From contig JAQURX010000001.1 in NCBI GenBank assembly GCA_028715415.1, positions 24,386-88,385 of the forward strand: a stretch of 64,000 nucleotides of DNA, written 5' to 3'. The position numbers are program-made. The DNA is from Candidatus Omnitrophota bacterium. Its GTDB lineage: Bacteria > Omnitrophota > Gorgyraeia > Gygaellales > Profunditerraquicolaceae. Below are positions 21,001 through 30,000 of the stretch, piece after piece. Every line of letters begins with the position of its first letter. Position 1 is the first letter of the stretch.

Positions 21001-24000
21001 GTTCGTTCAGGATGGATATGAGATATTTTGGATATTGCAATAGCCTGCGCATGATTAATAATCGTTTTAATAAATTATTCGGCTCACCGCCAAGAAAACG
21101 TGAAGCAAATTTAACTCAAAAAGACATGGATATAGCTGCTTCAATTCAAAAAGTTACCGAAGAAATTATGCTGCGTATGGTGCGCCACATCCATAAAATT
21201 ACAAAACAAGAGAATCTTTGTCTTGCTGGAGGAGTTGCTTTAAACTGTGTTGGAAACGGACGGATCCTGCGGGAAGGCCCGTTTAAAGAAATATGGGTCC
21301 AGCCAGCTAGTGGAGATGCAGGCGGGGCATTAGGGGCTGCGCTTCTTATCTGGTATAAATACTTAAAAAATGTAAGAAATGTAAATGGTTTTGATGATGC
21401 GCAGAATACTTCACTACTTGGTCCGTCATTTAAGGATGCTTATATCGAGAATTTCCTAAAGAATGAAAATATCCCGTTTAAAAAATTATCAGAAGCTGAA
21501 TTGCCGGATTTAGTTTCGGGTTTGATTGCGCAGGGGAATGTTATCGGTTGGTTTCAAGGAAGAAGTGAATTTGGCCCGCGCGCATTAGGAGCAAGAAGTA
21601 TTATTGGGGATGCTAGGAATAGGGAAATGCAGACAAAGATGAATTTAAAAATTAAATACCGTGAATCATTTAGGCCATTTGCTCCCAGCGTCTTAAAAGA
21701 AAAGGCGTCTGAATGGTTTGACCTTGATAAAGAAAGCCCCTACATGCTTTTGGTTGCTCCCGTAAAGAAAGATAAGCGGATTGATCCAAAAGGCCAAGAC
21801 AAAGAACTTTTCGGGCTGGATAAATTAAAATTTATACGTTCCCAAATCCCTGCAGTAACACATGTTGATTATTCCGCCAGGGTTCAAACCGTTAAAAGAG
21901 AGGATAACCCGCTTTATTATGATTTGATAAAATCTTTCTATAATAAAACAGGATGTCCTGTTATAATAAATACGTCTTTTAACGTAAGAGGAGAGCCTCT
22001 TGTCTTAACTCCGGAAGATGCTTTTAGGTGCTTTATGCGCACTGAAATGGACTATCTTGTTATGGGCAGTTTTCTTTTAGATAAGAAAGAACAAAAGCTT
22101 CAAGCAAAAGATGATAATTGGCATAAAGAATTTGAATTGGATTAAATGATGGAAAAACTGGATTTAGGAAGAAGTAACTTAAGGAAGTTTGGTATAATAA
22201 TGGGTGTTGCTTTTATTGCCATATCCGGAATTATTTTCTTAAAACATAGGCATTTCCCTCTTTGGGGGTTAATTAGCTCTGGGTTATTTTTTATTGCTGC
22301 GTTTACTTTTCCTTTAGCCCTTAAGCCTATATATATAACTTGGATGAAGTTAGCCTTTGTTTTGGCTTGGGTTAATACAAGGCTGATTTTGACAATAATT
22401 TTTTATCTAGTGTTTACACCGATTGGTTTAATATTAAAATTATTTAAGGTGGATTTATTGGAAAAGAAGATGGATAAGAAAGCAAGCACTTATTGGAAGA
22501 GCAAGGAAGAGGTTAAATTTGATCCTTCGTTATACGAGAGACAATTTTAAGTAAGATTATAAGAGTGGATTCCCGCTTTCGCGGGAATGACAGGGGGGAG
22601 TAATGGGTAAATTTTCTATAATAAAAGAATTTTGGCAGTTTTTGCGTGTTAGGAAAAAGTGGTGGCTTGCTCCGATAATTATTATGCTTTTATTATTTGG
22701 TATTCTTATCTTCTTTACGCAAAGTAGCGCTGTGGCACCTTTTATTTATACTTTATTTTAAGACGGAGGAATACGTGAATAAAATTGTAATATTGATTAT
22801 TGTTTTAGTTGTATTGTTTTCAGCTATCTTTTGGCACAACAATAGGCCGGAACCGATAGTGTTGAATATTATTGATCAAATTGATAAGCCAGCCTTTGAT
22901 GAAGCGGTTTACAGGATTAATTTCTTCGGGGTGCTGCCTGCTGGCAACGCGACTTTTTCAAATTCCAGAATTGAGGAGTTGAATAATCAAAAAGTAATTC
23001 ACTTAAGCGCAAAAGCTGAGAATTTGAATATTTTTGCCAAGTTTTTTAAGGTAACCGCCCTACTTGATTCATATATCGATCCGGTTAGCCTAAATCCTCA
23101 GTATTTTAAAGAAACGCTTTCATTATCGGGTAAAAAGGAATCAACAAAAGAGGTGTTTTATAACCAGAAAGGTAATATTGTAACCATAAGGGGAGTAGAG
23201 CGTTCAATGCTTCCTAATACGCAAGATCCGCTTTCCGCAATCTTGAATTTAAGGCGTATGGATTTTAATAAATTAAAGGATTTTGATTTAAGTTTAAACA
23301 CCAATCAAAAAAATTACGCGATAAAAGGCAAGGTGAGTGTTTTAGAAAAAACCATAAATAACAAAAAATACACCTTCTATGTTTTGAATGGAAATATTTT
23401 TCGAAGAGATAAAAATAATCCTTATCACAGATCTAGCATAACTATGGTATTGTTAAAAGAAAAAGAAAATCTTCCGGTGTTAATTAAAGTATTCGCCAGT
23501 GGGCTATTTATCAATGCCAGGTTAACGGACTTGAAATAATTGGTTTAAGTGTTTTTTAGCTCAAGATTTAATATCAATACAACATTAGGCTTAAACTTAG
23601 GTTTATAAAAAATAATTATGATTTTATTTTTAATAATAAATATAGCAGTTGTAATTTCTGCGTTTTTGTTAGCAGCAAGGTTATTTGGCTTCTCTAGTCT
23701 AGTTGATTTTTTAGTTTCTTGTTTTATCCTTTATTTTTCTCAGATTGTTCTAACCGAGTCAATTTTAGGCATATTCCAGATTTTAACCTTAAAATACCTT
23801 GTTTTATCCAATTTATTTATCCTTTTTTTTGTTTTTGTCCTGGTGGCCCTCAATGGGAAAAACCATTTAAAGCTTCCTGAAATAAAGCCAGCCTTAAAAC
23901 ATCTATTTAGTAATAGGATAATAGTGTTTGCAACATGCGTAATATTTGTTTTTGGGCTAGTTAAGGTTTTTATCAACCTTGTTAATGCGCCTTTTGGTTG

Positions 24001-27000: not shown

Positions 27001-30000
27001 ATGGTTTATGGGCGATGTATTACATTATAAAGTACCGTTTTGTAGGATAAAAATAGGAGAGCCTAATGGTTAAGTTCCTTGATTATGTTATTTATTGGTC
27101 AATAATATTTATTCCTTTTTCTATGGCTACTTCTCCTGTCCCGGTCAGCATTTTTTCCGGTTTTCTTATCGTTGCTTATTTAGTAAAACAGGCTTTAAAG
27201 AAAGAAGGCATATTTCCTAAAACAGCAATAAATCTACCACTATTACTTTTCTTTTTAATAACATGCATATCCATTGTGAATTCAATTAATTTTAGGGATA
27301 CTTTTAAAGGCGGTATCCTTAGGCTATTACAGTATGCTTTTATCTTTTTTATTATGGCAAAAGAGATTAAAGACAAAAAGCATGTGAGAATAATTGTTTT
27401 TTCTGTATTAGTTGGTTTAGTGCTTGCTTCAATAGACGGAATCTTTCAGGTTATAACAGGGTTTGATTTTATCAGGCATTGGGCGCCGATAATTAATATG
27501 GGCCTTGTGCGCGCAACCGCTTCTTTTAAGGATTCAAATACATTTGGAATTTATTTGAGCGCTTTAGCACCTTTGCTTTTGGGGCTTGCTTTGTATTATT
27601 ATAAGGGTAGTAAGAGGATGTTCTTTGTTTTAGCGAGCGTTATTTCGGTTATAGGGATATATCTGACATATTCAAGGCCGACTCTTTTGGCGATATATAT
27701 TGTTTTATTCTTCTTAAGCATCATAAGAAGGGATAAAATAGTGATAATTTCTTTAGTTGTGCTGACTGTGATTTCGCCGTTTATAGCACCAAAAGGGGTT
27801 AAAGATTGGGCAAAGCAGGTGGATTATGATCCAATCAGGTTTATGTGTAATGATGATAGGATTGCGATCTTCCGTAATTCCATGAATATGATTAAACACA
27901 ATCCGATTTTGGGAGTTGGAGCAAATACTTTTATGAAGAATTACAAAAAATATAAAGAAAACCCGGAATATATGAATATTGTTACTTCGGATTATTTATA
28001 CGCCCATAATAACTTTTTGCAATTAACCGCAGAGCTTGGTTTTATCGGTTTGGCAGTATTTCTCTGGCTTCTGTATAAATTGTTTAGTGAATCGGTTGCT
28101 ATCTATAGGAAGCTGAAAGATGATTATTTAAGGATAGTTTCTCTTTCTCTGATTGCTTGCTTGATCGCATTCTTAATCAATGGATTAACAGAGAGCAGCC
28201 TTAATTCATCTAGAGTGGCTTTAATATTCTGGTATCTTTGCGGGTTTTCACTTTCTCTTAAGAACTTTATTAAGTCAGAGAAATGATTAGAAAAATCCTT
28301 GCCTTCAGAAATGACCGTTTTGGAGAGTTTCTGTTAATAATTCCTGCCTTAAGGGCTTTAAAACAAAAATACCCGGAAGCCAAAATTACCTTAGTGGTTG
28401 ATTCTTATGTAAAAGATTTGGCGCATTGCATAAAATATGCTGACGAAGTAATTATCTGGGATAAAAGGGAGCATTCTTGGCTGGAAATTTTTCGCTATGC
28501 TATAAGCTTAAAGAAAGGTAAGTTTGATGCTTGCGTAGTATTTAATCCTTCCAAAGAGTTTAATATCATTAGTTTCTTGGCAGGAATTCCTATCAGGGTC
28601 GGATACGCGCGTAAAATGGGGCATTTATTAAACCGTAAAATAAAAGATGAGAAACATCTTGGGCTTAAGCATGAAGTTGAGTATAATCTTGATCTGGTTA
28701 ATTTGCTTGGGGCGGAGACTAACGATTTGACGTTGTCCTTAGAGACAAATGATGGTATAATATTAAATTTATTAAGCCAGGCAAAATTTAATAATGTAGA
28801 TAATTTGATTGCGATTCATCCCTGGACGAGTGATCCAATAAAACAATGGCCGGAAAAGTTTTTCCGTGTTTTGGCTGAGTTAATTTCAGTCAAGCTTGAT
28901 GTTAAGATAATTATAGTGGGTGCGGTAGATGAATCCAAATCCCATGAAAAATTTACAGGATTTGTTTATAACAATTTAGTTGACCTGACTAACAAGACTG
29001 ATCTTTTGCAATTGGCAGCCTTATTAAAAAAATGTAAATTGCTTATTTCTTGTGATAGCGGGCCAGTGCATTTGGCTTCTTGTGTAAATACGCCGGTTTT
29101 AGCAATATTTAAGAGTGGTATGCCTGGAAAAAGCCCTTTAAGATGGGGCCCGAGAAGCAAAGGAAGTATTGTAATACAAAAAGATGATTTAGCTGGCCTT
29201 TTGCCAGAGGAAGTCTTTGAAAAAGTAAAAGAGGTATTAAAAAAATGATTTATTCTGTAATTTTATCCGGTGGAGTAGGATCGCGGTTTTGGCCGTTAAG
29301 TAGGAGCAGCCAGCCAAAGCAGTTTCTTAATCTTTGTTCAAACAAACCTATGATTGAGCAGACTATATTGCGCCTTAAGCCCCTAGTAAGTAAGAATAAT
29401 TTCTATATTGCAACTAATAAATTGTATTCTAATAAAATAAAAAGCTTGTTAAAAAAGACAGGAATCCCTTTGCAAAATGCACTTTTTGAGCCGCAAAGCA
29501 GGAATACTTTTCCGCCAATTGTTGTGTTGTCTAAGGTTGTTTATGAAAAAGATAAAGACGCTGTCATGATTGTTTTGCCTTGCGATCACTACATCAAGAA
29601 CGAAACTAAGTTTCTGTCAATTCTCAAGAAAGCTATTTGTGTAGCCAAATCAGGCTACATTGTTACTCTTGGAATTAAGCCAGAAAGGCCGGAAATAGGA
29701 TATGGATACATTAAAGTAAATAAAAAACTAAAAACCGGCGCGTTTCTTGTTGAAAGATTTGTTGAAAAACCTAATTTTGAAAAGGCAAAGCAATATCTTA
29801 ATAACAAAAGTTTTTATTGGAATGGCGGGATCTTTATTTTTAAGGCCAGTGTTTTGTTGGATGAGGTTAAGAAGTTAGCTAAGAAAGACTACAAAGCAAT
29901 CCTTAAGGTAAATACGCTAAATAATGTAAAGATGAATTGGGGAAAAATAACTGCTACTTCTATTGATTACGCGGTGATGGAGAAGACAAAAAAAATAGCT

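Follow-up and report, generated by a model that had tools for sequence, protein, structure and literature searches.

A 64,000-nucleotide stretch of contig JAQURX010000001.1 (hereafter ‘the window’), from the bacterium Candidatus Omnitrophota, carries three adjoining genes at 23618–27050 whose products are probably the synthases and the transferase of a three-component system for glycosylation outside the cytoplasm. The first gene specifies a large membrane protein with the fold of a GT-C glycosyltransferase (GT). The second and third specify short glycosyltransferases of family GT2—GT2a and GT2b—whose closest relatives are Dpm1, GtrB and ArnC. In systems of this kind, a GT2 enzyme charges polyprenyl phosphate with a sugar, a flippase exports the lipid-phosphate sugar, and a GT-C enzyme transfers the sugar outside the cytoplasm (PMC11127046, PMC8035078). 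A preliminary description of this DNA had proposed a lipid-phosphate-sugar donor combined with a periplasmic GT-C transferase, encoded by genes offset by only 1–3 nucleotides (nt). The open reading frames (ORFs) and their junctions agree exactly with that linkage, and the GT-C fold, the Dpm1/ArnC/GtrB resemblance and the conservation of the linkage support the wider reading, with activities as predicted below.

Organization of the module

The three genes are as follows (aa, amino acids):

23618..25672, + strand: GT-C fold glycosyltransferase, 684 aa, ATG start
25674..26369, + strand: GT2a, putative polyprenyl-phosphate sugar synthase, 231 aa, ATG start
26373..27050, + strand: GT2b, Dpm1/ArnC-family GT2, 225 aa, ATG start

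A single nucleotide separates the GT-C gene from GT2a (TAA-a-ATG), and three separate GT2a from GT2b (TAA-agc-ATG). The next gene, at 27066, follows after 15 nt. Scans of 17000–36000 for transcription signals found 63 promoter-like sites against 67.2 expected and 21 terminator-like sites against 14.5 expected (~1.5 standard deviations), in neither case a clear excess over shuffled sequences, and so do not define the ends of operons.

The GT-C protein

Among GT-C enzymes, the 684-aa protein is related to the PMT_2/ArnT branch, though highly diverged from it. Structure comparison using an AlphaFold2 model shows that its polytopic domain matches solved GT-C enzymes in fold: Pmt4 (score 23.5), AglB (20.2), Pmt2 (20.0), ALG12 (19.0), ArnT (18.7), STT3B (18.5) and PglB (16.6), at sequence identities of 7–13%. 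Comparison with ArnT and PglB, which the preliminary description had put forward as a check, thus returns a GT-C-like protein. A transporter was also considered, and rejected: Foldseek matches to MFS or PepT proteins were few, with probabilities of ≤0.15 and TM-scores of ~0.1.

In sequence, the relationship is remote. The protein matches no Pfam or NCBIfam model, and neither PMT nor MIR domains were found in it by Pfam. Searched together with four orthologues, it gave no relevant Pfam match even at E ≤ 10, PMT_2, STT3 and PMT included. Models for the GT39, GT83 and YfhO families, to which the preliminary description had pointed, therefore miss it, and Pfam finds nothing relevant at E ≤ 10 in the window's other two large membrane proteins, at 18478 and 47267. 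Searches of PDB chains with the single sequence and with a 37-sequence profile returned nothing meaningful, and a profile of paralogues returned only PTS EIIC (E 0.66). The link to PMT_2 is a remote one between profiles, and the protein itself does not reach the PMT_2 gathering score. One paralogue (L022:3769–5856), of a family that occurs in other Omnitrophota and is 33–35% identical to the 684-aa protein, matches PMT_2 (PF13231) with E 7.5e-5 and 23.4 bits against a cut-off of 26.1. Alignment of the 684-aa family with the family of the 47267 protein by hhalign gives a probability of 94.7% (E 6e-8), and brings ‘PFGWDSLNY’ opposite ‘FDGDGLSR’ in the loop that follows transmembrane (TM) helix 1 of the core. 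The same comparison with the family of the 18478 protein gives only 27%.

The preliminary description had taken all three large proteins for GT-C enzymes with 12–13 TM helices. The GT-C assignment holds for each, by fold for 18478 and through PMT_2 relatives for 47267, but the helix count does not hold for the 684-aa protein, which has ~16 in the model: three extra N-terminal helices, and a 13-TM core that begins at helix 100–122. Model helices and loop charges obey the positive-inside rule throughout. By this rule, the K/R-rich loops (80–100, 203–209, 254–256, 295–298, 392–396, 445–449 and 491–503) are cytoplasmic, and the large conserved loop 123–165, loop 325–370 and the C-terminal domain (~535–684, ~150 aa) are periplasmic. 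The ~100 residues ahead of the core comprise the three TM helices and a short helix, an extension consistent with the register in which hhalign aligns the protein with 47267, whose N-terminus has a single TM helix. Within the membrane, this region (residues 1–100; 23618–23920) conserves the polar residues D30, Q42 and N65; in the 33–35%-identical paralogues Q42 is invariant too, as is G51.

Invariant, or nearly so, in 37 orthologues are D129, E140, D155, D156, D184, D235, K275, H367, E368 and R425. D184, D235, K275, E368, R425 and E658/D659 are invariant in the paralogues, too, as D129 is in most but not all. The first periplasmic loop of the core contains D129, which the alignment pairs with the Asp of a ‘DGxxR’ loop in the PMT_2-like 47267 family; in the model this loop has the lowest confidence, with pLDDT below 50 at residues 130–160. 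D129, D184, D235, K275, E368 and R425 are candidate catalytic or phosphate-binding residues on the periplasmic side. Judged against the published structures of ArnT and PglB, the conserved residues may be placed much like the acidic and basic side chains around the active sites of GT-C enzymes.

The protein has more than 500 homologues; those with a named source come almost without exception from metagenome-assembled genomes (MAGs) of Omnitrophota. They form an unannotated clade specific to this phylum, and the family has neither a Pfam nor an NCBIfam model. We found nothing on it in the literature on Omnitrophota glycosyltransferases or lipopolysaccharide (LPS).

The two short GT2 proteins

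GT2a and GT2b match the Glycos_transf_2 model of Pfam (E 1.8e-26 and 7.7e-37), are 33% identical to each other, and have no TM helices or hydrophobic segments. At 225–231 aa, they are too small to be processive membrane synthases, a possibility ruled out on that ground. The best relatives of both over their full length are dolichyl-phosphate mannose synthase (DPMS), GtrB and ArnC, and by this sequence comparison they are members of the Dpm1/GtrB/ArnC branch of GT2, as had been suggested for them and for a third GT2 at 52393 (GT2c, see below). For GT2a, the best PDB match is the DPMS of Pyrococcus furiosus (5mlz; E 1e-26, residues 2–219 against 25–241), followed by GtrB (sll0501) and ArnC. For GT2b, the best are the same DPMS (E 2.7e-19, 4–204 against 25–230) and ArnC (~2e-14). 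The top-ranking NCBIfam models are dolichyl-phosphate hexose transferase, ArnC, AglJ and PpgS, all scoring far below their equivalog cut-offs; the highest score is that of AglJ for GT2b, 126 bits against a cut-off of 325.

In the C-terminal R-x-x-G-x-S-K region, ‘EREKGKSSF’ of GT2a aligns with ‘RARGESKL’ of DPMS and ‘EREFGDSKY’ of ArnC, and GT2b has ‘PRTYKEGKKI’ at this place. The metal motif of GT2b, a protein with 44 orthologues in the comparison, is canonical (QDADLEYDP). That of GT2a, at residues ~86–94, reads M-A-D-L-C-D-D against D-A-D-L-Q, the first Asp being replaced by Met and the Gln by Cys. Because it is kept in 45 GT2a orthologues, this is a fixed variant and not a sign of decay. 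Neither protein has the C-terminal TM helices of GtrB, ArnC and the P. furiosus DPMS. Family members without TM helices are known—human DPM1 and mycobacterial PpgS—so their absence is compatible with polyprenyl-phosphate synthase function.

Conservation of the module across Omnitrophota

Loci with orthologues of the 684-aa protein were scanned in one genome per species, and their neighbours were mapped by tblastn. This yielded 79 loci, with orthologues 42–60% identical, nearly all in MAGs labelled Omnitrophota or evidently mislabelled. Where enough downstream sequence was present, a GT2a or GT2b orthologue started within 200 nt of the GT-C stop, or overlapped it, in 46 of 57 loci, and for this reason we do not ascribe the linkage to chance. 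At least one short GT2 occurs in 42/45 loci, both occur in 26/45, and Wzy_C occurs in 37/45. Of 54 loci, 37 have a DUF3108 gene upstream of the GT-C orthologue, in many cases running right up to its start. No clean pairing rule connects GT2a and GT2b with the second GT-C, at 18478.

The recurrent block reads GT-C (putatively YfhO-like), carbamoyltransferase, SxtJ, DUF3108, 684-aa GT-C, GT2a, GT2b, Wzy_C, GT9, ManC, GT9, DegT. Its other members in the window are:

18478..20325, + strand: second GT-C (by fold), putatively YfhO/DUF6311-like, 615 aa
20328..22550, + strand: carbamoyltransferase (NodU/CmcH type) and SxtJ-family small membrane protein (Pfam), between the two conserved GT-Cs
22697..23539, + strand: DUF3108 protein (Pfam E 5e-16), one N-terminal TM anchor and a predicted periplasmic domain
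27066..28286, + strand: O-antigen ligase/Wzy_C membrane protein (Pfam Wzy_C E 2e-22; weak NCBIfam RfaL and PEP_O_lig_1)
28283..32500, + strand: GT9 (heptosyltransferase family), ManC-type nucleotidyltransferase, GT9 and DegT aminotransferase (Pfam and synteny), LPS-core-like

No gene of the block is better conserved than that of the carbamoyltransferase (65–77% identity across loci; SxtJ, 33–59%), and the pair suggests an O-carbamoylated sugar in the envelope. The DUF3108 protein has no sequence relatives in the PDB. The exact sequence of its ORF from the TTG at 22697 is absent from the protein collection, and the annotated start probably differs.

Paralogues of the GT-C have short GT2 neighbours of their own. 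One locus (L022) has DegT, a 231-aa GT2 and then the paralogue; two others have a 313-aa GT2 with TM helices (L025) and a 243-aa GT2 (L068). At a further locus (L066), an extra cassette at 5627–8004, between DUF3108 and the GT-C orthologue, encodes first a GT2 of 233 aa, in which the DAD and R-x-x-G-x-S-K motifs are canonical, and then a DUF2079 membrane protein of 562 aa (PF09852, E 2.4e-73), DUF2079 being a member of the Pfam GT-C clan. Judging by their tblastn patterns, L002, L004, L010, L024, L060 and L065 may have a like insertion, that of L066 alone being verified. Since paralogous GT-Cs and the DUF2079 cassette repeat the arrangement independently, a short Dpm1-like GT2 beside a GT-C is a modular, recurring unit in the phylum.

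Proposed mechanism

GT2a and GT2b would be peripheral proteins at the cytoplasmic face of the membrane, where each would move one sugar from a nucleotide sugar to polyprenyl phosphate, probably undecaprenyl phosphate. The two probably use different sugars. The resulting lipid-phosphate sugar would cross the membrane by way of a flippase, and the 684-aa GT-C would add its sugar to an acceptor in the periplasm. That the GT-C takes a lipid-phosphate sugar as its donor is suggested by a single feature, its adjacency to the Dpm1-like GT2s. No candidate flippase adjoins the three genes; the only ones in the window are Wzx/MATE-like (1075 and 61246), tens of kilobases away. Pfam scans of the window ORFs revealed no GtrA-family flippase, the SMR and ArnE/F families not having been specifically searched. 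For one three-component system, the flippase proposed is of the MATE family (PMC11127046).

Comparison with known systems

By analogy, the module would work like ArnC/ArnT, GtrB/Gtr*, CsbB/YfhO and Ppm1/Pmt, and its mechanism would be textbook rather than surprising. It differs from the ArnC/ArnT system, which modifies lipid A in Escherichia coli and Salmonella, in that the GT-C misses the PMT_2 model that covers ArnT, and has ~100 additional N-terminal residues (three TM helices); GT2a and GT2b lack the two TM helices of ArnC; and no ArnA- or ArnD-like genes were found in the window. Comparable systems related to ArnC/ArnT are FlmF1/FlmF2/FlmK of Francisella, LgmA/LgmB of Bordetella and RgtE/RgtA-D of Rhizobium. 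The DPMS–PMT and Ppm1/Pmt systems provide the best structural matches, Pmt4 for the GT-C and the P. furiosus DPMS for the GT2s, and in being without TM helices GT2a and GT2b recall human DPM1 and the catalytic domain of Ppm1.

The GtrA/GtrB/Gtr* and CsbB/GtcA/YfhO systems follow the same logic of a lipid-phosphate-sugar synthase and a GT-C (PMC11127046; PMC8035078). GtrB (sll0501) is a top PDB match here, the 18478 protein may be YfhO-like and GT2c has the architecture of GtrB. Unlike the serotype-specific Gtr* enzymes, the 684-aa GT-C is strongly conserved across the phylum, and the Omnitrophota module has two tandem TM-less synthases, with no GtrA-family protein among the Pfam-scanned ORFs. 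What is distinct in the module, then, is that its GT-C fails the sequence models of these systems and has a conserved three-helix N-terminal extension, that its synthases are in tandem and TM-less, one with a variant metal motif, and that no flippase is adjacent.

Acceptor and alternative explanations

Given such a system, we tentatively favour the conserved lipid A–core of LPS as the acceptor, glycosylated in the manner of ArnC/ArnT. We do so because the module sits, phylum-wide, beside an O-antigen-ligase-like gene, two GT9 genes, ManC and DegT, and because conservation of the GT-C far exceeds that usual for serotype-converting GT-Cs. The nearly orphan GT-C at 47267, in contrast, lies in the variable part of the glycan cluster, the 684-aa protein in the conserved part.

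The main alternative acceptor is protein. Were the system one of bacterial O-mannosylation, akin to actinobacterial Ppm1/Pmt, ManC would provide GDP-mannose, GT2a or GT2b would make polyprenyl-phosphate mannose, and the GT-C would mannosylate Ser and Thr residues of secreted proteins. The top fold match (Pmt4), the top GT2 match (a dolichyl-phosphate mannose synthase) and the nearby ManC gene speak for this. We consider it unlikely nonetheless. The GT-C differs from PMT enzymes in matching no PMT model, lacking MIR domains and sharing only 7–13% identity with its fold matches, and the neighbourhood is of the LPS type.

Rather improbable, too, is a role for GT2a and GT2b as ordinary glycosyltransferases of the cytoplasm, elongating the LPS core or a lipid-diphosphate oligosaccharide, with the GT-C supplied by some other synthase and the adjacency reflecting an LPS operon. 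The far sub-threshold NCBIfam scores, the missing TM helices and the non-canonical M-A-D motif of GT2a would all fit such enzymes, as would the genomes that keep GT2a alone or GT2b alone and the four loci with neither adjacent. Against this, the best structural relatives are all polyprenyl-phosphate glycosyltransferases, the alignment spans the family-specific C-terminal motif, TM-less members of that family are familiar, and independent paralogous GT-Cs and the DUF2079 protein each have a short GT2 of their own immediately upstream.

A bolder version of the lipid-phosphate-sugar proposal, and a long shot in our estimation, would make the 684-aa family a phylum-wide, near-essential envelope enzyme whose N-terminal three-helix module replaces the third component, in a coupled synthase–transferase complex that glycosylates lipid A–core. 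The module might then offer the TM-less synthases a docking site, in the way that DPM3 serves DPM1, or assist in flipping the lipid-phosphate sugar, and the M-A-D-L-C-D-D motif of GT2a might reflect an unusual donor or metal chemistry. Least credible by far is a reading of the GT-C as an STT3/PglB/AglB-type oligosaccharyltransferase, which would pass on a preassembled glycan en bloc from a lipid-diphosphate donor, since the WWD[YWFN]G motif is absent from the 684-aa protein and its 37 aligned orthologues (as from the other two large proteins and their alignments), no STT3 model of Pfam matches at E ≤ 10, the profile link goes to PMT_2-like proteins, and the adjacent monosaccharide-type synthases fit a lipid-phosphate sugar.

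With the assignment of a GT-C coupled to Dpm1-like synthases, an envelope gene that ranks among the best conserved in Omnitrophota, an uncultured and partly predatory or parasitic phylum, acquires a predicted function, and periplasmic sugar modification of the LPS or surface proteins of the phylum is to be expected. Its value is mainly for annotation and for the biology of the Omnitrophota envelope. The 684-, 615- and 587-aa GT-C proteins are 100% identical to NCBI entries from one 219-kb contig of a Candidatus Omnitrophota MAG (PHO70_00255, PHO70_00230 and PHO70_00370, respectively), all labelled ‘hypothetical protein’, and the synthases are labelled only ‘glycosyltransferase’. The 684-aa family could seed a new GT-C family in CAZy and Pfam.

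Other GT-C and Dpm1-like proteins in the window

Three further genes in the window are relevant here:

2331–3125: fourth GT2, 264 aa, no TM helices, next to the Wzx-like gene at 1075; full-length DPMS alignment
47267..49030, + strand: third GT-C, very divergent and PMT_2-like, 587 aa; start confirmed by an exact 587-aa database entry
52393..53313, + strand: GT2c, 306 aa, GT-A domain and two C-terminal TM helices (Pfam), GtrB/ArnC architecture

The large proteins at 18478, 23618 and 47267 are all polytopic, with a C-terminal soluble domain of ~140–180 aa. The preliminary description had seen in them an unusual triplication of one system. They belong to different families and so are not a triplication, and BLASTP finds no significant similarity among them. 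Nor is the number itself unusual, multiple GT-C/synthase pairs per genome being common. The C-terminal domains of 47267 and 18478 are related (hhalign, 96.7%). Neither the 18478 protein nor its homologues P0137 and P0143 match YfhO or DUF6311 (PF09586/PF19830) in Pfam at E ≤ 10; two homologues bear the NCBI name ‘YfhO family’, and faint precomputed listings of PF19830 and PF09586 (also PF26626) were not reproduced by the Pfam scan. The 47267 protein found itself alone in a word-indexed search of 5.8 billion proteins, and 18 relatives, most 18–29% identical, among 1.84 billion representatives. It has no relevant Pfam match of its own at E ≤ 10; of its relatives, 11/14 match PMT_2 (best E 1.3e-18) and 5/14 match PMT.

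GT2c has GtrB (sll0501; E 3.8e-17) as its best PDB match, then ArnC and DPMS. Its NCBIfam matches to AglJ, ArnC and PgfS run through the TM region, none at an equivalog cut-off, and it has ‘RKGKTK’ in place of R-x-x-G-x-S-K. The GT2 at 2331 aligns with DPMS over 7–211 against 24–222 (E 1.8e-16) and is 29% identical to both GT2a and GT2b. By sequence resemblance, the Dpm1-like enzymes in the window may therefore number four.

Gene content of the window

Pfam scans of essentially every ORF show the window to be a glycan-assembly region. All of its credible genes are on the + strand, at a GC content of 32–39%. Its glycosyltransferases comprise seven GT2, four GT4, three GT9 and one MGDG-synthase-like enzyme. 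There are Wzx-like genes at 1075 and 61246 and a single Wzy_C/O-antigen-ligase-like gene, at 27066, together with sugar-nucleotide enzymes, nine B12-binding radical-SAM proteins (SAM, S-adenosylmethionine), three SAM methyltransferases, one MBOAT protein and one SemiSWEET:

6603–6866: SemiSWEET, 87 aa (MtN3_slv E 4.8e-12; PQ-loop 2e-10), directly upstream of a GDP-mannose dehydratase gene

Flipping had been attributed, provisionally, to the SemiSWEET and the Wzx-like proteins. The SemiSWEET is genuine, but nothing warrants crediting it with lipid flipping. A housekeeping island at 35917–42002 (PriA, Fmt, two tandem GalT/HIT-like genes and GAPDH) divides the glycan cluster, with the conserved part to its left and the variable part to its right.

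Directly upstream of the GT-C at 47267, at 44888–47102, are genes for an N-terminally anchored 346-aa protein without a family match and then the MBOAT acyltransferase. These look like a pair for extracytoplasmic O-acylation, of the AlgI/AlgJ or DltB/DltD type.

The nine B12-binding radical-SAM genes (4104–5570, 9845–11224, 13446–14960, 17005–18462, 50947–52383, 53297–54706, 55705–57273, 58264–59700 and 59702–61243) alternate with glycosyltransferases and with the SAM methyltransferases at 14929, 54714 and 57289. Their density is unusually high for a surface-glycan cluster and may indicate that sugars are C-methylated or modified in some other way.

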